Origin: a virus | Lineage: Duplodnaviria > Heunggongvirae > Uroviricota > Caudoviricetes | Length of the DNA stretch: 5,982 nt | Strand: one strand, 5' to 3' | Virus record (IMG/VR): IMGVR_UViG_2606217106_000001 | Span: 1 to 5,982 of that record | In this document: positions 1-5,982 of the stretch, one piece after another | Layout of the letters: the number at the start of each line of letters is the position of its first letter | How positions within the stretch are numbered: position 1 is the first letter of the stretch | The notes under the pieces: model-generated | Databases searched by the model: none | What the model saw: only the letters and a program-made list of their open reading frames with translations | What the model was told of the DNA's origin: nothing | Made by a program: the position numbers and the translations under genes

Positions 1-631
1 GAGATTGGGTTGGGAGAGTAGTCATGGTGACAGCCCCTATGTTGAATTCAATGAACTCACCACCAAGGCTTTCCACGACCATATAGGTGGTGAGACGTAC
101 AGGGGTGGAAATACCGGTCAACATAGAACCCGGCCCAACCGAAGTTGGCCCTGCACGCCCCACCATAATTTGGGCATAACGATGCTCATGACACGAAAAA
201 ACCGCATGAGCGCGGTTGTGCTCTATATTGAATTTCGGGTTTCCACGCCCGGCACCCGCTTTATAAGGTGCCTGAGCAGTGTAACGTCCCGGAATTGCAG
301 AATCAATATGCTGGTGGTCCTTCACACTCAACAAAATCACGCCTGAATTTCCACAAAGGACTAAAGCACTCATGCGGGTAGTCTTTGCGAAGATAGATAA
401 CGCGCTGTGTTTCTGGCTCCCAACGAATAACATGAACATAAAGTCCTCTTCCGTCACGAAACCAGCGGTTAAGTTCCTGCACAACTCGCCCCCCACAGTC
501 AGGTAAAGTTCTCTGTGGTTACTTACAGCCAGGTGATTTGGTAATCTGCATTCATGCCGTAACAACAGGTGTTCAGCGACGCTGACCACCAGCTGTTGCG
601 ACAAACGGTTATTTGCCGTTAAACTATTCAT
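1..631 (-). CDS. Hypothetical protein, N-terminal ~210 codons; gene continues beyond the window start. Position (after cro and the 183-aa gene) suggests a replication/early-right module, but function is unassigned
   Basis: Hand translation of the minus strand (plus-strand triplets 629-631, 626-628 ... 2-4) is stop-free to position 1. ATG at 631-629 overlaps the TGA of the upstream gene (ATGA at 628-631), with an in-frame stop just upstream at 635-637 and a GGAG about 10 nt upstream. It is missing from the ORF track because no stop lies in the window; the listed + ORF 5..346 is its same-register antisense shadow. No family recognised. Confidence 0.7.
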   Translation of the reverse strand, partial: MNSLTANNRLSQQLVVSVAEHLLLRHECRLPNHLAVSNHRELYLTVGGELCRNLTAGFVTEEDFMFMLFVGSQKHSALSIFAKTTRMSALVLCGNSGVILLSVKDHQHIDSAIPGRYTAQAPYKAGAGRGNPKFNIEHNRAHAVFSCHEHRYAQIMVGRAGPTSVGPGSMLTGISTPVRLTTYMVVESLGGEFIEFNIGAVTMTTLPTQS

Positions 632-1179
632 GCGTTAGTTTCTCCACAGACACAAAACGCCACGACGCCCGGAGCTGCACACTCGCGGGCGTCACTCTTT
701 TCTGGAGCGCAAAAGATTTTGTAGACCAGTGCTGCATGCTCCTGGAGCTTCGAAATTGACAGATACAACTCATCATTAATTGCTGTCTGCTCGTGTGGCT
801 CCACTACCCCATCTTCGATTGCCGAACGAATCTGCTTTGAGTAACTCCCGATCTGTTCGATGACTTCCAGCAGACGCTGGTTAATATCGGCGTTGTCCAC
901 ATCCTCGACGTCAGGAAGAGACACAAAGACGCCATTTGCAGACTGCGCCACAGCGTCAGCAATGAAGTGAGTTCCACCAGCACGTTGTAAAATCATTGCC
1001 CATCCCAGCGGGAAAATCTGATCGCCATCTGCACGAAGGCGGTTGAATAATGCGTTCTCTGTTACATCCAGCCACTCAGCAGCTTCAGCGTAACCCCCCG
1101 GCAACGCCGCGATAGTTTTTCTGACAGCTTTCACGTACCACTCAGGCTGTTTTTCCACTTTCCAGTGATGATTACCCAC
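628..1179 (-). CDS. 183-aa early protein in the cII position, immediately downstream of cro; possibly a CII-like/YdaT-like regulator, function not established
   Basis: GTG start at 1179-1177 preceded by AGGAGG with a 6-nt spacer (reverse complement of 1180-1195). The start overlaps the end of the cro-like gene by 8 nt and the stop overlaps the next start, so the three minus-strand genes are translationally coupled. The functional label is from position only. Confidence 0.7.
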   Translation of the reverse strand: MGNHHWKVEKQPEWYVKAVRKTIAALPGGYAEAAEWLDVTENALFNRLRADGDQIFPLGWAMILQRAGGTHFIADAVAQSANGVFVSLPDVEDVDNADINQRLLEVIEQIGSYSKQIRSAIEDGVVEPHEQTAINDELYLSISKLQEHAALVYKIFCAPEKSDARECAAPGVVAFCVCGETNA

Positions 1180-1432
1180 GGCTTACCTCCTGTTCCTGTG
1201 GTTTAAACCCATTCTGGTTTTGGCTAGATTGAAAACGTGCCGGATAAAGAATCTGCATTTCGCTGATTTCACCCTTAAAAAAATTGGCCAGACGTTCTGC
1301 AAGATCGATAGATGGAATTTGTTCCAGTCTTTCAATACGACTCAGCGTCGCTGGATTGACCTGAACGCCCGCAGCAACATGCTGCAAAGTAAATCCGTGC
1401 GCCTTACGCACATTCCGTAATGGTGATTGCAT
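1172..1432 (-). CDS. Cro-like HTH (XRE-family) transcriptional regulator, 86 aa
   Basis: ATG at 1432-1430 with GGAGG 4 nt upstream (reverse complement of 1433-1441). Protein has a classic XRE helix-turn-helix (FTLQHVAAGVQVNPATLSRIERLEQ). It is divergent from the cI-like gene across a 97-bp operator region. Confidence 0.85.
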   Translation of the reverse strand: MQSPLRNVRKAHGFTLQHVAAGVQVNPATLSRIERLEQIPSIDLAERLANFFKGEISEMQILYPARFQSSQNQNGFKPQEQEVSRG

Positions 1433-1529
1433 ATAACCTCCACATATTGCGTGATGAGCATATTATTTCACGCAAATATTTTGCGCAAGTTGATTTGCTT
1501 AACGCGCAATAAAGAAATGTAATAAACGC
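1433..1529. promoter_or_regulatory. OR-like immunity intergenic region with three dyad-symmetric operator candidates spaced 24 bp centre to centre, plus candidate divergent promoters pR (towards cro) and pRM (towards cI)
   Basis: Dyads at 1447-1461 (TTGC-N7-GCAT), 1471-1485 (CGCAA-N5-TTGCG) and 1495-1509 (TTGC-N7-GCAA). Candidate pR on the minus strand: -35 TTGCGC (reverse complement of 1483-1488), 17-nt spacer, -10 TAATAT (reverse complement of 1460-1465). Candidate pRM on the plus strand: -10 TAATAA at 1520-1525, which puts the transcript start at or near the cI ATG, and there is no SD before 1530. Confidence 0.6.
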
Positions 1530-2222
1530 ATGAACATAGGAAACCGAGTCAGACAACTTCGCCAGGCGAAGAACATGAAAATCGCCGATCTCGCTGAAGC
1601 AATAGGAGTGGATGCGGCGAATATCTCACGCCTGGAAACAGGTAAGCAGAAACAATTCACTGAACAAGCCCTGAGTAATATTGCCAGGAGCTTAGGTGTT
1701 GATATTGCTGATCTCTTTACCTCAGACGTCAAAAGTAATACTGTATGTAAAAACAGTATTAGTGAGGATGTTGCGCAGGTGAAGGATGTATTCCGTATTG
1801 AAATGCTGGATGTCAGTGCCAGTGCGGGAAATGGCCTTATCCAGGGCGGTGATGTCATTGATGTGATTCATGCCATTGAATACAGAACTGATAATGCTGT
1901 ATCGATGTTTGGCGGACGGCCAGCCAATCACATTAAAGTTATCAACGTTCGTGGGGACAGTATGTGTCCAACCATTGAGCCAGGAGATCTCATCTTCGTT
2001 GATATCAGTATCAATCAGTTTGATGGGGATGGTATATATGTATTTGGTTTTGATGATAAAATTTACGTCAAACGACTGCAAATGATACCTGATAAACTGC
2101 TGGTAATTTCTGATAATCAGATTTACCGCGAATGGGGAATTACCAGCGAAAACGAACATCGGTTTATGGTCTTTGGAAAGGTCTTAATCAGTCAGTCACA
2201 AACCCTTAAGCGACACAATTAA
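1530..2222 (+). CDS. cI-like prophage repressor, 230 aa: N-terminal XRE HTH plus C-terminal S24 (LexA-like) autopeptidase domain
   Basis: HTH at roughly residues 17-40 (KIADLAEAIGVDAANISRLETGKQ). Candidate Ala99-Gly100 cleavage site in the linker (SASAG-NG). GDSM with Ser144 and a KRL lysine (Lys181); the Ser-to-Lys spacing of 37 residues equals that of LexA. ATG at 1530 has no SD. Confidence 0.93.
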   Translation: MNIGNRVRQLRQAKNMKIADLAEAIGVDAANISRLETGKQKQFTEQALSNIARSLGVDIADLFTSDVKSNTVCKNSISEDVAQVKDVFRIEMLDVSASAGNGLIQGGDVIDVIHAIEYRTDNAVSMFGGRPANHIKVINVRGDSMCPTIEPGDLIFVDISINQFDGDGIYVFGFDDKIYVKRLQMIPDKLLVISDNQIYREWGITSENEHRFMVFGKVLISQSQTLKRHN

Positions 2223-2242
2223 CCCCTACCTCAACATCAATT

Positions 2243-2267
2243 AGCCACCAGAAGGTGGCTTTTCATT
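2243..2267 (+). terminator. Rho-independent terminator candidate downstream of the cI-like gene
   Basis: AGCCACC (2243-2249), 4-nt loop AGAA, GGTGGCT (2254-2260), followed by TTTTCATT; 21 bp after the cI stop. Confidence 0.6.
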
Positions 2268-2276
2268 ACCCACCAA

Positions 2277-2330
2277 ATTGCATATCTCGCAATAAAAACA
2301 CTTGCATAATGCGCAACTTCATTTTATCTT
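2277..2330 (+). promoter_or_regulatory. OL/pL-like region: two operator dyads matching the OR consensus, overlapping a candidate rightward promoter
   Basis: TTGC-N7-GCAA dyads at 2278-2292 and 2302-2316, centres 24 bp apart, with the shared core TTGCnTAnnnCGCAA. Candidate promoter: -35 TTGCAT at 2302-2307, 17-nt spacer, weak -10 TATCTT at 2325-2330. The promoter assignment is tentative. Confidence 0.45.
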
Positions 2331-2760
2331 TCTTTCCAGACATACAAACAAGGTACTAACAAAATTTGGTTGTAACACGGCGTATGGCACATGCGTCGTT
2401 AGCGGTCTGGTGACGTTAAAGGGGACAATCCACTCCTTGCTCGGGCAAACAAACCAGGTAGCCGGAATGTGCAAGTCAATGATGATGCTGATAAGACGCC
2501 TAACCAGCGTGGCGATTCGGTTTGACGCCTGGGAAGAGACCAGGGTGCAACGATGAGGGCATTTATGGAACCGCGACAAAGTGTGGTGCCGTAACTGGCT
2601 AAGTGCTCTCAGCGTTGTGGTGAATGCGCAGGCTGATGCGCGAAAGACATTGCAGCTATTGCGGAAAAGAGCTGTTCGGCGGGGCAATTAAACGCCCGTG
2701 AGAGTCTGAAATAACCGCAAGCCGGAGATCAGCACCGGTCACCACAACAGCCACTGCTTT

Positions 2761-2807
2761 AGCGGTACCAGTTTGTACACTTGCTTCCGGCTGGTACCGC
2801 TCTTTTT
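2761..2807 (+). terminator. Strong hairpin followed by a U-tract; candidate intrinsic terminator or attenuator upstream of the accessory operon
   Basis: Perfect 11-bp inverted repeat AGCGGTACCAG (2761-2771) and CTGGTACCGCT (2791-2801) around a 19-nt loop, then CTTTTTA at 2802-2808. The minus strand has no U-tract. Confidence 0.4.
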
Positions 2808-2896
2808 ACAAAACAGAGAAGAGCATCACCGGCCGACGGGCTCATAACCCAATCCATCCTGGCGGCTGCCACCGCAGGTGTTCTTCTCTGTTTTGT
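2808..2896. repeat. Perfect 15-bp inverted repeat enclosing 59 bp of GC-rich sequence, just upstream of the yfdP-like ribosome-binding site
   Basis: ACAAAACAGAGAAGA at 2808-2822 is the exact reverse complement of TCTTCTCTGTTTTGT at 2882-2896. The enclosed segment has further local dyads (for example CCTGGCGG...CCGCAGG). Confidence 0.6.
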
Positions 2897-2944
2897 GGAG
2901 AAACCAACCGACCTTGCAGGGTCGATATGATGAGGAGCAGCAAA

Positions 2945-3307
2945 ATGGCTAGCGAACGCAGTACTGATGTGCAGGCATTTATCGGGGAGCTGGACGGCGG
3001 CGTATTTGAAACCAAAATCGGCGCTGTTCTCAGTGAAGTCGCTTCCGGTGTGATGAATACGAAAACCAAAGGTAAGGTCTCGCTCAACCTGGAAATCGAA
3101 CCATTTGATGAGAACCGTGTGAAAATCAAACACAAACTCTCATATGTTCGCCCGACTAACCGCGGGAAAATTTCCGAAGAAGACACCACCGAAACGCCGA
3201 TGTATGTCAATCGCGGTGGTCGCCTGACTATTCTGCAGGAAGACCAGGGACAATTACTGACTCTTGCCGGTGAACCTGACGGAAAACTCCGCGCAGCAGG
3301 TCGTTAA
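2945..3307 (+). CDS. yfdP: YfdP-like prophage protein of unknown function, 120 aa from this start
   Basis: ATG at 2945 preceded by GAGGAG (2932-2937) with a 7-nt spacer. The ORF track begins at ATG 2927 (126 aa), which remains an alternative. Symbol assigned by synteny with yfdQ/yfdR and recalled length; not verified. Confidence 0.7.
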   Translation: MASERSTDVQAFIGELDGGVFETKIGAVLSEVASGVMNTKTKGKVSLNLEIEPFDENRVKIKHKLSYVRPTNRGKISEEDTTETPMYVNRGGRLTILQEDQGQLLTLAGEPDGKLRAAGR

Positions 3308-3372
3308 TATCGTTTTTAATTAACTGATTATTTATCTCATCACTGAATATCTTTATATAGTGAGGACTTATT

Positions 3373-4197
3373 ATGTCTCAGAACTTAGACGCAACCGCAA
3401 TTAATCAAATCCATGCCCTTATTTCTGCTCAGGGTGTTAATGAAATTATCAGTAAGATTGGTGCCGATGCTGTGGCATTGCCTGAGAATTTCCGCATTCA
3501 TGATCTGGAAAAATTTAATTTAAATCGCTTCCGTTTCCGTGGTGCGCTTTCCACTGCCAGCATCGATGACTTTACCCGTTATTCTAAAGATCTTGCAGAT
3601 GAAGGCACCCGCTGCTTTATCGATGCTGATAATATGCGTGCCGTCAGTGTGCTTAACCTGGGTACTATTGATGAACCAGGTCACGCAGATAACACCGCCA
3701 CACTCAAACTGAAAAAGACAGCACCGTTCTCTGCTCTGTTGTCTGTTAACGGCGAGCGTAACTCCCAGAAGTCACTGGCAGAATGGATTGAAGACTGGGC
3801 CGACTACCTTGTGGGCTTTGATGCTAATGGTGACGCTATTCAGGCAACAAAAGCGGCTGCGGCAGTCCGTAAAATCACGATTGAAGCAAACCAGACCGCT
3901 GATTTTGAAGATAATGACTTCAGCGGCAAACGCTCCCTGATGGAATCTGTCGAAGCGAAGACCAAAGACATTATGCCAGTGACATTTGAATTTAAATGCG
4001 TTCCGTTTGAAGGCCTGAAAGAACGTCCGTTTAAATTACGCCTCAGCATTATCACTGGCGATCGTCCTGTACTGGTTCTGCGCATTATTCAGCTGGAGGC
4101 GGTGCAGGAAGAAATGGCTAACGAATTTCGTGATCTGCTTGTTGAGAAATTTAAGGACAGCAAAGTAGAAACCTTTATTGGTACTTTCACCGCCTGA
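3373..4197 (+). CDS. yfdQ: YfdQ-like prophage protein (DUF2303 family as I recall it), 274 aa, function unknown
   Basis: ATG at 3373 with GTGAGGA (3360-3366) at good spacing; a long uninterrupted ORF of protein-like composition. Length and position match CPS-53 YfdQ from memory. Confidence 0.88.
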
Positions 4198-4209
4198 TTT
4201 CATTACTGC

Positions 4210-4231
4210 AAATGCCCCTGCGGGGGCATTT
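4210..4231 (+). other. GC-rich hairpin in the yfdQ-yfdR spacer; weak terminator, attenuator or RNA-stability element
   Basis: AAATGCCCC (4210-4218), loop TGCG, GGGGCATTT (4223-4231): a 9-bp stem starting 13 nt after the yfdQ stop. The 3' T-run is short and mostly inside the stem. Confidence 0.35.
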
Positions 4232-4324
4232 ATGGAAACATAATTTACTCAATAATCGCCGGATGGTGATGGCTTCCTTTTACCAGAATTCAGCGCGGTG
4301 CAGCGCATATACGTGGAGAACAAA

Positions 4325-4861
4325 ATGTCATTTATTAAAACTTTTTCCGGGAAGCATTTTTATTATGACAGGATAAATAAAGACGACATCGTGATTAACG
4401 ATATCGCGGTTTCCCTTTCAAATATCTGTCGCTTTGCAGGACATCTTTCACACTTCTACAGCGTCGCCCAACATGCGGTGCTTTGCAGCCAGCTGGTACC
4501 GCAGGAATTTGCTTTTGAAGCGTTAATGCATGATGCAACAGAAGCGTATTGCCAGGATATTCCCGCTCCACTGAAACGCCTTCTTCCTGACTATAAACGG
4601 ATGGAAGAAAAAATAGACGCCGTAATCCGTGAGAAATACGGGTTACCCCCGGTTATGAGCACGCCCGTGAAATATGCCGATCTCATCATGCTGGCAACCG
4701 AACGCCGCGATCTCGGGCTTGATGATAGCTCTTTCTGGCCTGTACTGGAAGGTATCCCGGCAACAGAGATGTTCAAAGTGATTCCACTGTCGCCAGGCCA
4801 TGCCTACGGGATGTTTATGGAACGTTTTAACGAGTTATCGGAGTTACGCAAATGCGCATGA
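4325..4861 (+). CDS. yfdR: YfdR-like HD-domain phosphohydrolase (YfbR-type 5'-deoxynucleotidase family), 178 aa
   Basis: ATG at 4325 with GGAGAA (4314-4319) upstream; the ORF-track start at 4298 is a GTG 9 codons further up with no SD. HD-domain residues are visible: H40, H43, H50 and the H69-D70 pair (FAGHLSH ... LMHDATEAY). Confidence 0.88.
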   Translation: MSFIKTFSGKHFYYDRINKDDIVINDIAVSLSNICRFAGHLSHFYSVAQHAVLCSQLVPQEFAFEALMHDATEAYCQDIPAPLKRLLPDYKRMEEKIDAVIREKYGLPPVMSTPVKYADLIMLATERRDLGLDDSSFWPVLEGIPATEMFKVIPLSPGHAYGMFMERFNELSELRKCA

Positions 4862-5202
4862 ATGTTTTCGAAATGGAAGGGTTTCTTCGCGGGAAATGTG
4901 TACCACGAGATCTGAAAGTGAATGAAACAAATGCTGAGTATCTGGTGCGTAAATTCGATGAAGTACGTGCTGAGGCTCGCAACGAGGGTATTAACTATAC
5001 CGCAAGCCGTCTTGCTGCGGCTTTCAATCACGGATTTATCAATAAGTCTTTACGTGAAGTTTTCGACGTTACACGCATGATTCTGTCAGCGAAAGAAGAG
5101 TTGGCTAATGAACCACACCCGATTGATGGCCTGTCCGGTGAATATGCGGAGAAATCCCTAGAAGAATGGGCGGAACAGATTCGCAAAGGAGGCAACCAGT
5201 GA
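4852..5202 (+). CDS. YfdS-like small prophage protein, 116 aa; C-terminus ends in the RKGGNQ junction motif
   Basis: ATG at 4852 with GGAG (4840-4843) 8 nt upstream; it overlaps the yfdR stop (4859-4861) by 10 nt. An in-frame ATG at 4858 gives an ATGA overlap instead. The stop overlaps the next gene's GTG start. Confidence 0.75.
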   Translation: MRMNVFEMEGFLRGKCVPRDLKVNETNAEYLVRKFDEVRAEARNEGINYTASRLAAAFNHGFINKSLREVFDVTRMILSAKEELANEPHPIDGLSGEYAEKSLEEWAEQIRKGGNQ

Positions 5203-5204
5203 GC
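5180..5204 (+). repeat. Copy 1 of a 25-bp perfect direct repeat spanning a gene junction (codons for RKGGNQ, SD, stop and GTG start)
   Basis: TTCGCAAAGGAGGCAACCAGTGAGC is identical at 5180-5204 and 5857-5881. About 40 bp of downstream flank is similar but not identical (roughly 70% by eye). Confidence 0.9.
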
Positions 5205-5879
5205 AAGATTGACTATCAAGAACTGCGCGAGGCGGCGGAACAGGCAACGCAAGATGAATGGGTAGCATATATTTTGCCGGGTCATAACGGCATTTATCCT
5301 GCGCGCACGTCTGAGGGTAGGCATTGCGGATACTTTATTGACTGGCCTGGCGTCTGTCAGGGGCGGGAGAGCATCAGCATCAGAACCTACGCAGTGAATT
5401 GCAATGACGCATGGCTAAACACCGAAGGTGATGACATCTCCGGCTCATACGTTAAGTACAAAGACCATCAGGAAGTGGTTGCCGCTCTTGAGGCCAAGTG
5501 CGCGGCGCTGGCTGCTGAGAATGCGGGAATAAAGTCTGCAATTCCAAAATCACGGGATATTGAGGATGACAATGACAATATGGATGACGTATCTCTCGCG
5601 GAAGACTTCGGGTTCAATCATGCAATAGAACGGATGAGGAGACAGATACCTGAAACGCCAACCACTGATGCTTTCCTGGCTGAAGTCCGGGCGCAGGGGG
5701 TGGATGCTGCTATAGAAGCTGCAAAAAATCTGGTGGCCCAAGAATATGAGTGTAAGGATTTCAAAGCGGCGCAGAGTGATTGCTGTATGTACCCTGGTTC
5801 AGACCTGGTAGGGAAGGTTGAAATGACTGAGTGGTTAGTTGACTTTGCTGCCCAGCTTCGCAAAGGAGGCAACCAGTGA
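5199..5879 (+). CDS. Acidic hypothetical protein, 226 aa, tentatively Ead/Ea22-like (typical lambdoid early-left accessory gene)
   Basis: GTG at 5199 preceded by AAGGAGG (5186-5192) with a 6-nt spacer, overlapping the upstream stop (GTGA). The ORF-track start at ATG 5166 has no SD and would overlap the upstream gene by 37 nt. N-terminus SKIDYQELREAAEQ; C-terminus LRKGGNQ. Confidence 0.75.
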   Translation: MSKIDYQELREAAEQATQDEWVAYILPGHNGIYPARTSEGRHCGYFIDWPGVCQGRESISIRTYAVNCNDAWLNTEGDDISGSYVKYKDHQEVVAALEAKCAALAAENAGIKSAIPKSRDIEDDNDNMDDVSLAEDFGFNHAIERMRRQIPETPTTDAFLAEVRAQGVDAAIEAAKNLVAQEYECKDFKAAQSDCCMYPGSDLVGKVEMTEWLVDFAAQLRKGGNQ

Positions 5880-5881
5880 GC
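5857..5881 (+). repeat. Copy 2 of the 25-bp perfect direct repeat at the next gene junction
   Basis: Identical to 5180-5204, 677 bp downstream, in the same relation to stop and start codons. Confidence 0.9.
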
Positions 5882-5982
5882 GAAATTAATTACCAGGCAC
5901 TGCGTGAGGTGGCGGAACGTGCAATTCCAGCAATGGAACGCCTGTTAATGTTGCCAGTTGATGATGATTTGTTAAGTGAACA
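5876..5982 (+). CDS. Paralogue of the preceding gene, first 35 codons only; runs off the window end
   Basis: GTG at 5876 behind the same AAGGAGG and GTGA stop-start overlap. The N-terminus VSEINYQALREVAER parallels VSKIDYQELREAAEQ of the upstream gene. Open to the window end, so not in the ORF track. Confidence 0.55.
   Translation, partial: MSEINYQALREVAERAIPAMERLLMLPVDDDLLSE

Follow-up and report, generated by a model that had tools for sequence, protein, structure and literature searches.

The yfdPQR block of an Escherichia coli lambdoid prophage: three apparently separable cassettes in a predicted early-left operon

Introduction

The yfdP-yfdQ-yfdR block described here, together with the gene that follows it, occupies positions 2945-5202 of a 5,982-nucleotide stretch of DNA from a virus of the class Caudoviricetes (IMG/VR record IMGVR_UViG_2606217106_000001, positions 1 to 5,982), referred to throughout as the window. 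The window encompasses the immunity region and the early-left arm of an Escherichia coli lambdoid prophage. The block appears to be composed of three separable cassettes: an obligate pair of genes encoding YfdP and YfdQ, a facultative gene encoding the HD-domain protein YfdR, and a mosaic fourth slot. With a probability of about 0.5, we consider it to be the promoter-proximal part of an early-left (pL-type) operon of a prophage of the SfV/mEp460/CPS-53 type, with a role in host takeover at the level of DNA metabolism.

The block is neither a new system nor a defense system. It is a catalogued and partly characterized cluster, found in most E. coli genomes, and finding it again changes nothing. 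The analysis does, however, narrow the functional unit to the YfdP-YfdQ pair, which is predicted to act early after induction and which travels with DNA-metabolism genes. These two proteins are among the larger phage protein families without known function (PHROGs 204 and 210; 1,729 clusters). A covarying and unannotated leader RNA upstream of yfdP is a small, concrete new lead on how the early-left operon is controlled among lambdoid phages that lack N.

Organization of the Block

Over 3 kb, the window shares 99.7% identity with the prophage that is integrated beside mlrA in E. coli strain TOE17, in which RefSeq annotates the same reading frames. Partial matches to the 3-kb query are found in 3,625 of 5,426 complete E. 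coli genomes, and matches covering at least 80% of its length in only 18.

The four genes at 2945-5202 are co-oriented on the plus strand, and the listing of open reading frames (ORFs) and a reading of the sequence bear out both the coordinates and the description in the original prediction, including a Shine-Dalgarno sequence for each gene. The first gene, yfdP (2945-3307, 120 amino acids), begins with ATG and has GAGGAG 8 nt upstream. It is followed by yfdQ (3373-4197, 274 amino acids; GAGGA upstream), yfdR (4325-4861, 178 amino acids; GGAGA upstream), and the fourth gene (4852-5202, 116 amino acids; GGAG upstream). A longer yfdR frame initiated by GTG at 4298 was rejected, as it differs from the annotated start. 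Gaps of 65 and 127 nt separate yfdP from yfdQ and yfdQ from yfdR, respectively, while yfdR overlaps the fourth gene by 10 nt. The stop codon of the fourth gene in turn overlaps, by 4 nt, the GTG start of an Ea22-like fifth gene (5199-5879, plus strand, 226 amino acids; AAGGAGG-N5-GTG), a start that is also used by RefSeq in TOE17, and the transcription unit therefore runs past 5202. From these overlaps, the last three genes (yfdR, the fourth gene, and the Ea22-like gene) are predicted to be translationally coupled. A perfect 9-bp GC-rich hairpin, AAATGCCCC-TGCG-GGGGCATTT, lies on the plus strand at 4210-4231, 13 nt 3' of the yfdQ stop codon, and has no T-run; it is possibly a partial terminator or stabilizer that divides yfdPQ from yfdR. 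Operon tables for E. coli K-12 give yfdPQ as a separate operon (PMC9181523).

The order YfdP, YfdQ (DUF2303), YfdR on one strand is that of K-12, and orthologs of all three are present. Identity to the K-12 proteins extends to 118 of 119 residues in YfdP (99%), 271 of 274 in YfdQ (99%), and 173 of 178 in YfdR (97%), and the three proteins match PHROG families 204, 210, and 318 at E-values of 1e-49 to 1e-120. These matches mark the frames as genuine genes and not as products of chance.

To follow the conservation of the block, yfdQ loci were compared from the genomes of 80 species and from five phages that are distant (Vibrio phages VvAW1 and 1.151.O, Xanthomonas CP2, Pseudomonas pAN, and Acinetobacter Mystique). 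A yfdP homolog lies directly 5' of yfdQ in 84 of the 84 loci that have upstream DNA. YfdR is encoded in 59 of 72 Enterobacterales-like loci (adjacent in 54), in none of eight other gammaproteobacterial loci, and in one of the five distant phages, and the fourth slot varies among 59 loci. Because YfdP and YfdQ are always paired, YfdR is separable, and the fourth slot is mosaic, the block is best seen as three cassettes, and the earlier idea of one operon acting as one module has to be given up.

The Early-Left Position

The genes are located after the repressor gene and before xis-int, behind operators that also occur in the cI/cro region, as is expected for the early-left arm of a lambdoid phage. 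The repressor itself (1530-2222, plus strand) is of the cI type, with a helix-turn-helix (HTH) domain and an S24 peptidase domain (Pfam Peptidase_S24, E=5.8e-19; HTH_3/HTH_26), and in the TOE17 prophage it bears the annotation XRE family regulator. Directly 3' of this gene, a terminator scan finds a bidirectional terminator-like hairpin (2243-2260) that divides repressor transcription from the yfd block. It is followed by two palindromic operators of the OL type (TTGC-N7-GCAA; 2278-2292 and 2302-2316), which were recognized as a repeat family and by reading of the sequence. The starts of these two copies lie 24 bp from each other, and a third copy is found at 1495-1509 in the intergenic region between the repressor and cro. 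A pL-like promoter may be placed around 2302-2330 (TTGCAT-17-TATCTT), although its fit to the consensus is weak.

The same order of repressor, terminator, operators, leader, and yfdP is found in the viable phage mEp460, in which yfdP is the first coding sequence. The suggestion that the block occupies the promoter-proximal position of an early-left operon is thus upheld. As the block lies behind OL-like operators and a terminator, its function is expected to be an early one after induction and not one exerted in the lysogen.

The YfdP-YfdQ Pair

YfdP belongs to phrog_204 and carries PF27127 in precomputed annotation, whereas YfdQ matches Pfam DUF2303 (PF10065) at E=2.5e-92 and is an acidic protein with an isoelectric point (pI) of 5.0. 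Several observations suggest that the two form an obligate pair. In addition to their invariable adjacency, the upstream genes of the distant Vibrio, Xanthomonas, and Pseudomonas phages encode true YfdP homologs (hhalign probabilities of 99.2-99.9%). The divergence of YfdP and YfdQ from the window proteins is also closely correlated (r=0.87, n=80), whereas that of YfdQ and YfdR is not (r=0.32). On these grounds, YfdP and YfdQ probably associate in a physical complex.

The AlphaFold2 (AF2) model of YfdP has a long helix and a three-stranded beta meander, with a predicted local distance difference test (pLDDT) score of 77, and that of YfdQ has a pLDDT of 76. In these monomer models, the most conserved segments, the YfdP tail (around residues 70-105) and the YfdQ loop (172-198), are of low confidence, and they may be interfaces that are formed only in the complex. 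Profile and structure checks had been proposed for these proteins; they returned the PHROG and Pfam matches given above, but no informative fold or family match that gives YfdP or YfdQ a biochemical activity. The original prediction held that the roles of the two proteins are unknown, and this is still how they are described: in a 2025 survey of lambdoid phages, the yfbR/yfdQ/yfdP trio is common in early-left operons, with its function undescribed (PMC12315714).

PDB entry 9o7m, titled 'YfdQ Protein', has 36 chains and is matched by YfdQ at E=1e-44. Its source is a CP2-like Xanthomonas phage, 98.8% identical to Xanthomonas phage MET23-P3. As neither a near-identical capsid, nor the YfdP homolog, nor the downstream gene of this source phage is found in the PDB, 9o7m is treated as an assembly of YfdQ only, and appears to be a YfdQ homo-oligomer; its interpretation as a virion reconstruction or as a YfdP-YfdQ complex was rejected on the absence of the capsid and the YfdP homolog. 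Literature searches on 9o7m, DUF2303, PF10065, and phrog_210 gave nothing relevant, and no paper was traced for 9o7m in the literature searched. The libraries used for fold searches (a Foldseek copy reaching to April 2026) do not contain the entry. This solved assembly may hold the answer to the function of YfdP-YfdQ.

The YfdQ family consists of 1,729 clusters at 50% identity. Domain fusions were considered as a functional clue and set aside, as the top 150 of these 1,729 representatives are all of around 265-290 amino acids, with no fusions among them. The pair is found in 184 phage records as against 23 plasmid records, and the latter are mostly mislabelled chromosomes or prophage-like, so that an association with plasmid leading regions or anti-defense islands was also rejected. 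In the distant phages, the neighbors of yfdPQ encode single-stranded DNA-binding protein (SSB), YqaJ and DEDD exonucleases, RecT, ERF, a gp5.9-like protein, methylases, and integrases, which places the pair in the early region for DNA metabolism.

Blocks of yfdP, yfdQ, and yfdR of the Enterobacterales type, whose YfdQ has 55-66% identity to that of the window just as in enterobacterial genera, also turn up in records with non-enterobacterial titles, namely Chryseobacterium sp. 18061 (L134), a Geobacteraceae metagenome-assembled genome (L141), and Martelella alba (L102/L126). These probably reflect contamination or mis-binning and not host range.

YfdR and Its Link to DnaA

YfdR is predicted to be an HD-domain phosphohydrolase of the 5'-deoxynucleotidase type. 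It matches phrog_318 at E=1e-109 and the structure of Atu1052 (PDB 2gz4) at E=1e-13. Residues H50, H69-D70, E73, D78, and D119 align with the catalytic residues of YfbR, and are invariant among YfdR, YfbR, and a Pseudomonas phage homolog. Both phrog_318 and phrog_8467 are annotated as deoxyribonucleoside 5'-monophosphate (dNMP) phosphatase, and RefSeq names yfdR a 5'-deoxynucleotidase. The claim that YfdR carries an intact HD motif of the YfbR type is upheld by this alignment, but the protein is only 22% identical to YfbR and falls below the curated cut-offs for that family, with 24.2 bits against 25.9 for Pfam PF12917 and 19.9 against 122 for the NCBIfam equivalog PRK03826. Hydrolases of the YfdR type are found in 337 phage records, many of them from Bacillus, Caulobacter, Rhizobium, or jumbo phages without yfdPQ. 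From this distribution and from its presence in some loci only, YfdR appears to be an independent enzyme cassette and a facultative neighbor of yfdPQ in enterobacterial lambdoid phages.

The original prediction named a link between this cluster and DnaA, and the published work verifies it. Noguchi and Katayama (2016) found yfdQRST of the K-12 prophage CPS-53 as a multicopy suppressor of hda-185 (PMC4776307). Multicopy yfdQRS or yfdQRT inhibits initiation at oriC in vivo, and in vitro replication from oriC is likewise inhibited in extracts that contain an over-supply of YfdQRST; the in vivo inhibition requires yfdQ, yfdR, and either yfdS or yfdT, but not yfdP (PMC4776307). Purified YfdR binds DnaA through domain I, with DnaA Phe46 important for the interaction, and moderately inhibits the binding of both DiaA and DnaB to DnaA (PMC4776307). 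The initiation phenotype of K-12 cannot simply be transferred to the alleles in the window, because yfdT is missing from the window and the gene of yfdS type there has no DUF551 domain.

The Mosaic Fourth Gene

The fourth protein had been called yfdS-like, a description that applies to its N-terminal module only. It is identical to K-12 YfdS at 37 of 41 positions over residues 1-41, and beyond these its C-terminal domain is of the Ea22 type and not DUF551. The same division is seen in the PHROG matches, with phrog_583 covering residues 1-42, and only the C-terminal ends of the Ea22-type phrog_614/368 covering residues 36-116. The protein has no match in Pfam, and hence no DUF551 was found in it, whereas K-12 YfdS hits this domain. 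It ends in KGGNQ, and its Ea22-type C-terminal domain is fused directly to the YfdS N-module of around 35 residues.

Among 59 loci, the fourth slot always opens with MRMNVFEMEGFLRGKCVPRDLKVNETNAEYLVRKF, which is then followed by varying C-terminal domains. At least four different C-terminal architectures follow the constant 35-residue N-module (loci L008-L087). The commonest is the K-12 type, with a coiled coil and DUF551; others include a 150-residue alternative and a KGGNQ domain that either comes after a coiled coil or is joined directly. The gene in the window belongs to a minority variant found in around 7 of the 59 loci. It shares a junction motif and its last 14 residues with its Ea22-like neighbor, and seems to derive from a deletion by which the N-module came to adjoin an Ea22-type domain directly at the '...EVRAEARNEG' junction. 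The Ead/Ea22 domain itself (PF13935) is matched by the fifth gene only, at E=1.7e-27. No ORF in the window aligns to K-12 YfdT save for a 17-residue stretch at chance level, and the Ea22-like gene follows in its place.

The Structured Leader

Between the operators and yfdP lies a stretch of around 620 nt in which the ORF listing contains no credible reading frames and to which Rfam has no match. Its 3' part, at 2754-2944 on the plus strand and directly 5' of yfdP, is a structured leader of three hairpins with a fold z-score of -5.98. Hairpin 1 (2761-2801, with a U-run to 2808) was identified as an inverted repeat and by RNA folding; it has perfect 11-nt arms followed by CUCUUUUU and is terminator-like, and in other genera its GGCGGTACC...GGTACCGCC-CTTTTTTA architecture is kept. 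Hairpin 2 (2803-2900) has a stem of around 25 bp and a variable loop, and is conserved 5' of yfdP across genera with compensatory changes. Hairpin 3 (2908-2925) lies just 5' of the yfdP Shine-Dalgarno sequence, and in its helix (helix 5) four of the six pairs are changed on both sides.

Overall, both sides are changed in 19 of the 31 pairs tested. Leader cells are paired in 81.5% of cases compared with 37-57% in slid controls, and the observed score was reached by none of 500 shuffles. These pairs were counted explicitly on a structure derived from the window, so that the count leans to the window's own fold, yet the slid controls and the double changes support it. RNAalifold returned no structure for the gappy leader alignment, and an Rfam search of the element found no family. 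Nucleotide identity of hairpins 2 and 3 across genera is 70-92% over blastn matches of around 60-190 nt, often above the identity of the proteins, and indels in the loops are not multiples of three. The element is present in 62 phage records, and is unannotated in them.

The 5' part of the leader (2335-2750) does not fold unusually (z -0.8), and contains patches that blastn finds conserved at the nucleotide level in other genera, especially 2377-2413, 2457-2544, 2602-2645, and 2717-2748. One conserved patch covers a possible 29-codon ORF, MCKSMMMLIRRLTSVAIRFDAWEETRVQR, running from ATG at 2467 to TGA at 2556, and may be coding or RNA. A minus-strand ORF at 2319-2687 (122 codons, TTG start), antisense to the leader and of low complexity, was judged to be spurious; it is not called by PGAP in TOE17, and carries a hypothetical-protein annotation in mEp460 (mEp460_037).

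In K-12, similarity to the window starts only around 25 nt before the ATG of yfdP, and the leader has been replaced (yfdO-yfdP spacer of the K-12 locus, 9248-9604, compared with 2560-2944 of the window). Boxes for SrsR (YgfI), which lie 5' of yfdP in K-12, were looked for in the window and are absent. The regulation of K-12 yfdP through SrsR boxes (PMC9181523) cannot be transferred to the window, as the boxes are missing and the upstream DNA is unrelated.

Proposed Role in Host Takeover

An early function in host takeover at the level of DNA metabolism is the best-supported mechanism for the block. It is built upon the gene identities, the synteny, the operator repeats, the HD residues, which are intact, and the biochemistry published for K-12; experiments back the link between YfdR and DnaA, and YfdPQ is brought in by its context. 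The cI-type repressor of the lysogen would hold the block off through the OL-type operators, and the block should thus be silent until induction or infection, when it would be transcribed through the structured leader of around 620 nt. YfdQ would then build a high-order oligomer, with YfdP and YfdQ acting as a two-gene unit. YfdR would occupy the Phe46 surface of DnaA domain I in competition with DiaA and DnaB and, together with YfdQ and the Ea22/YfdS-type partner, would dampen new rounds of initiation at oriC. The phosphohydrolase activity of YfdR would act on dNMPs, and a YfdP-YfdQ complex would function in the same DNA-metabolism context. The promoter, the timing of expression, the YfdP-YfdQ complex, and the carry-over of the K-12 phenotype to the window alleles are all inferred. 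The prophage has no recognizable Exo/Bet/Gam module between pL and xis-int. It encodes a replication protein of the DnaD_N/HTH type, so that the freeing of host DnaB would be a plausible benefit.

A number of points weigh against this reading. The K-12 effect was observed at raised copy number only, cells deleted for yfdQRST have no initiation phenotype, and the authors allow that the over-supply effect may be an artefact (PMC4776307). Within that effect, yfdP is dispensable (PMC4776307), and in fold and profile searches no match gives YfdP or YfdQ an activity. The window also lacks two components of the K-12 cluster, yfdT and the DUF551 domain of the yfdS-type gene. The promoter hexamers at the pL-like site are weak, and a promoter scan of the window did not flag them. 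Furthermore, an interaction with DnaA Phe46 is unlikely to be the general role of the YfdR family, because its members are so widespread in phages that include those of Bacillus, Caulobacter, and Rhizobium.

Alternative Explanations

A serious rival is that the real function of YfdR is the manipulation of nucleotide pools, through the dephosphorylation of dNMPs (such as those set free from degraded host DNA) or the adjustment of precursor pools, with the binding of DnaA an artefact of overexpression and YfdPQ and the fourth gene unrelated passengers on the same transcript. We regard this as possible, though less likely than not; pool manipulation by YfdR and host takeover are not mutually exclusive. 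The intact HD residues and the phosphatase annotations support it, as does the wide occurrence of the YfdR family among lytic and jumbo phages that are unrelated and have no yfdPQ. YfdR is also absent beside yfdPQ in 13 of the 72 Enterobacterales-like loci and in all eight of the other gammaproteobacterial loci, and the concession of a possible artefact comes from the discoverers themselves (PMC4776307). Conversely, YfdR is not a YfbR equivalog by the bit scores given above, and its nucleotide affinity is much lower than that of YfbR according to Zimmerman (2008) as that work is cited in PMC4776307. The binding of purified YfdR to DnaA was specific and depended on Phe46 (PMC4776307), and yfdP, yfdQ, and yfdR stay adjacent in 54 of the 72 Enterobacterales-like loci.

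A more far-reaching idea, which we hold to be doubtful, is that YfdP-YfdQ is a phage machine of two proteins, widely conserved yet unrecognized, whose fold is an orphan. With its YfdQ assembly of around 36 subunits, the pair would have a new activity on host replication or immunity, and would be expressed under a new class of conserved structured leader RNA that replaces N/nut, working either by processive antitermination or as an RNase III switch.

Counter-defense and a cryptic role in recombination are both possible functions of YfdPQ, although each is improbable. As a counter-defense device, a large acidic YfdP-YfdQ oligomer would sequester or mimic a signaling nucleotide, DNA ends, or a nuclease, and YfdR may hydrolyze a nucleotide signal. 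The early-operon position, the phage-restricted distribution (184 against 23 records), and the acidity and high-order oligomer of YfdQ would all fit, and a gene of the gp5.9-type RecBCD inhibitor family adjoins the pair in one locus, with the HD hydrolase often adjacent. However, neither protein has sequence or fold similarity to a known anti-defense protein or sponge, and a constant length of around 270 amino acids across 1,729 clusters is unusual for fast-evolving anti-defense genes. In the lambdoid survey, phage LLS, which has the trio, encodes no known recombination proteins, and the prophages lacking an annealing protein are all classed as without a recognizable anti-RecBCD gene (PMC12315714).

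The second of these, to which we give still less credence, is that YfdP-YfdQ performs an annealing or end-binding function that replaces Red/Erf in those lambdoid phages that lack a Rec module. Known annealing proteins form large oligomers, as does YfdQ in 9o7m. The pair lies in the place of the Rec module in a prophage without Exo/Bet/Gam, and in distant phages it adjoins genes for SSB, exonuclease, RecT, and ERF. Deletion of yfdQ is also associated with a weak sensitivity to methyl methanesulfonate and H2O2 in work cited in PMC4776307. Yet RecT/ERF, exonuclease, and SSB of the phages' own lie beside yfdPQ in the distant phages, YfdQ is acidic, and no sequence or fold similarity was found between YfdP or YfdQ and annealing proteins, exonucleases, or Gam. 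ArgO145 carries the trio as well as a complete Rec module, and the authors of the survey judge such a role unlikely (PMC12315714).

The original prediction also entertained a defense module, and an anti-phage defense or superinfection-exclusion function expressed in the lysogen to protect the host is judged extremely improbable: despite its prophage cargo position, stress-tolerance phenotypes of CPS-53 deletions in cited work, and plaques formed by a resident phage upon YfdQ production in a K-12 strain, which points to some phage-phage interplay (bioRxiv 10.1101/413146), a search of all five proteins against the PADLOC-DB v2 models at E<=0.1 matched no family, the block lies behind OL-type operators with a terminator dividing it from the repressor, YfdPQ and YfdR are found in many free phages, including non-lambdoid ones, with a lytic-early slot in mEp460, and a block that is expected to be silent in the lysogen makes lysogen defense the least likely reading.

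Other Features of the Window

Upstream of the repressor, the minus strand encodes a CII/CP76-type protein (628-1179) and a Cro-like HTH protein (1172-1432). At the far end of the window, three minus-strand segments (83-170, 195-271, and 232-284) have Rfam matches, two of them families above the gathering score, namely C4 antisense RNA at 82.4 bits and the Hfq-binding small RNA isrK at 61.6 bits; a sub-threshold match to the c4-a1b1 target is also among the minus-strand results for 83-284. Together, the C4, isrK, and c4-a1b1 matches are suggestive of an RNA module, either for P1/P7-type antisense immunity or anti-Q-like, at the right-operon end of the prophage.

Comparison with Known Systems

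The closest relative of the block is yfdPQRST of the K-12 prophage CPS-53 (KpLE1) (PMC4776307). The order, spacing, and overlaps of the genes are the same, as is the N-terminal end (35-41 residues) of the fourth gene product. K-12 YfdS continues with a coiled-coil segment and DUF551, whereas the fourth protein in the window has the KGGNQ domain, and where CPS-53 has yfdT the window has the Ea22-like gene. CPS-53 has also lost the repressor, the operators, and the leader, while the window keeps this regulatory context. In phages SfV, SfIV, mEp460, ST64B, phiNP, and LLS, and in the Stx2c phages, this trio likewise comes first after the repressor, and the leader hairpin is shared. Phages of the SfV/mEp460 type differ from the window in nothing essential, with only the fourth and fifth genes varying.

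The leader is comparable to two known types of early RNA. The lambda N leader contains an RNase III-sensitive hairpin, and HK022 uses the put antiterminator RNAs. Like these, the window has a long conserved hairpin in the interval from the putative early-left promoter to the first gene; it lies directly 5' of the ribosome-binding site and after a terminator-like hairpin. The window differs in that it appears to have no N gene and no boxA/boxB, the conserved structured RNA lying where these would be expected, and in that Rfam gives no match, and HK022 is not among the phages that share the leader. By analogy, the leader may serve as a hairpin for RNase III or for translational control, or may belong to an RNA-based device for antitermination in phages that lack N.

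Variants of Ea22 have a mosaic architecture of portable domains in the lambda exo-xis region (PMC10834534). The fifth gene of the window is a member of this family, and the fourth gene uses portable C-terminal domains of the same kind, but with the YfdS N-module in place of the N-terminal segment and coiled coil of Ea22.

YfdR resembles the 5'-deoxynucleotidases of the YfbR/PHROG 318 type in its H...HD...E...D...D residues, its strong PHROG match, and its structural relative 2gz4. T5 Dmp is comparable to this PHROG 318 family of phage dNMP phosphatases. YfdR is set apart by its low identity to YfbR, by scores below the family cut-offs, and by a reported DnaA-binding activity.

As a protein that acts on DnaA, YfdR joins lambda P, which targets domain III, Bacillus subtilis SirA, and E. 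coli DiaA and Dps, which target domain I (PMC4776307). It has no sequence relation to any of these, has an enzyme fold, and in vivo requires YfdQ together with YfdS or YfdT and is effective at over-supply only. With DiaA and DnaB, it shares the use of the Phe46 surface of DnaA domain I, and the outcome in the case of YfdR is the inhibition of initiation. If the link between YfdR and DnaA is physiological, it would provide lambdoid phages with a second route, besides that of lambda P, for the silencing of oriC.

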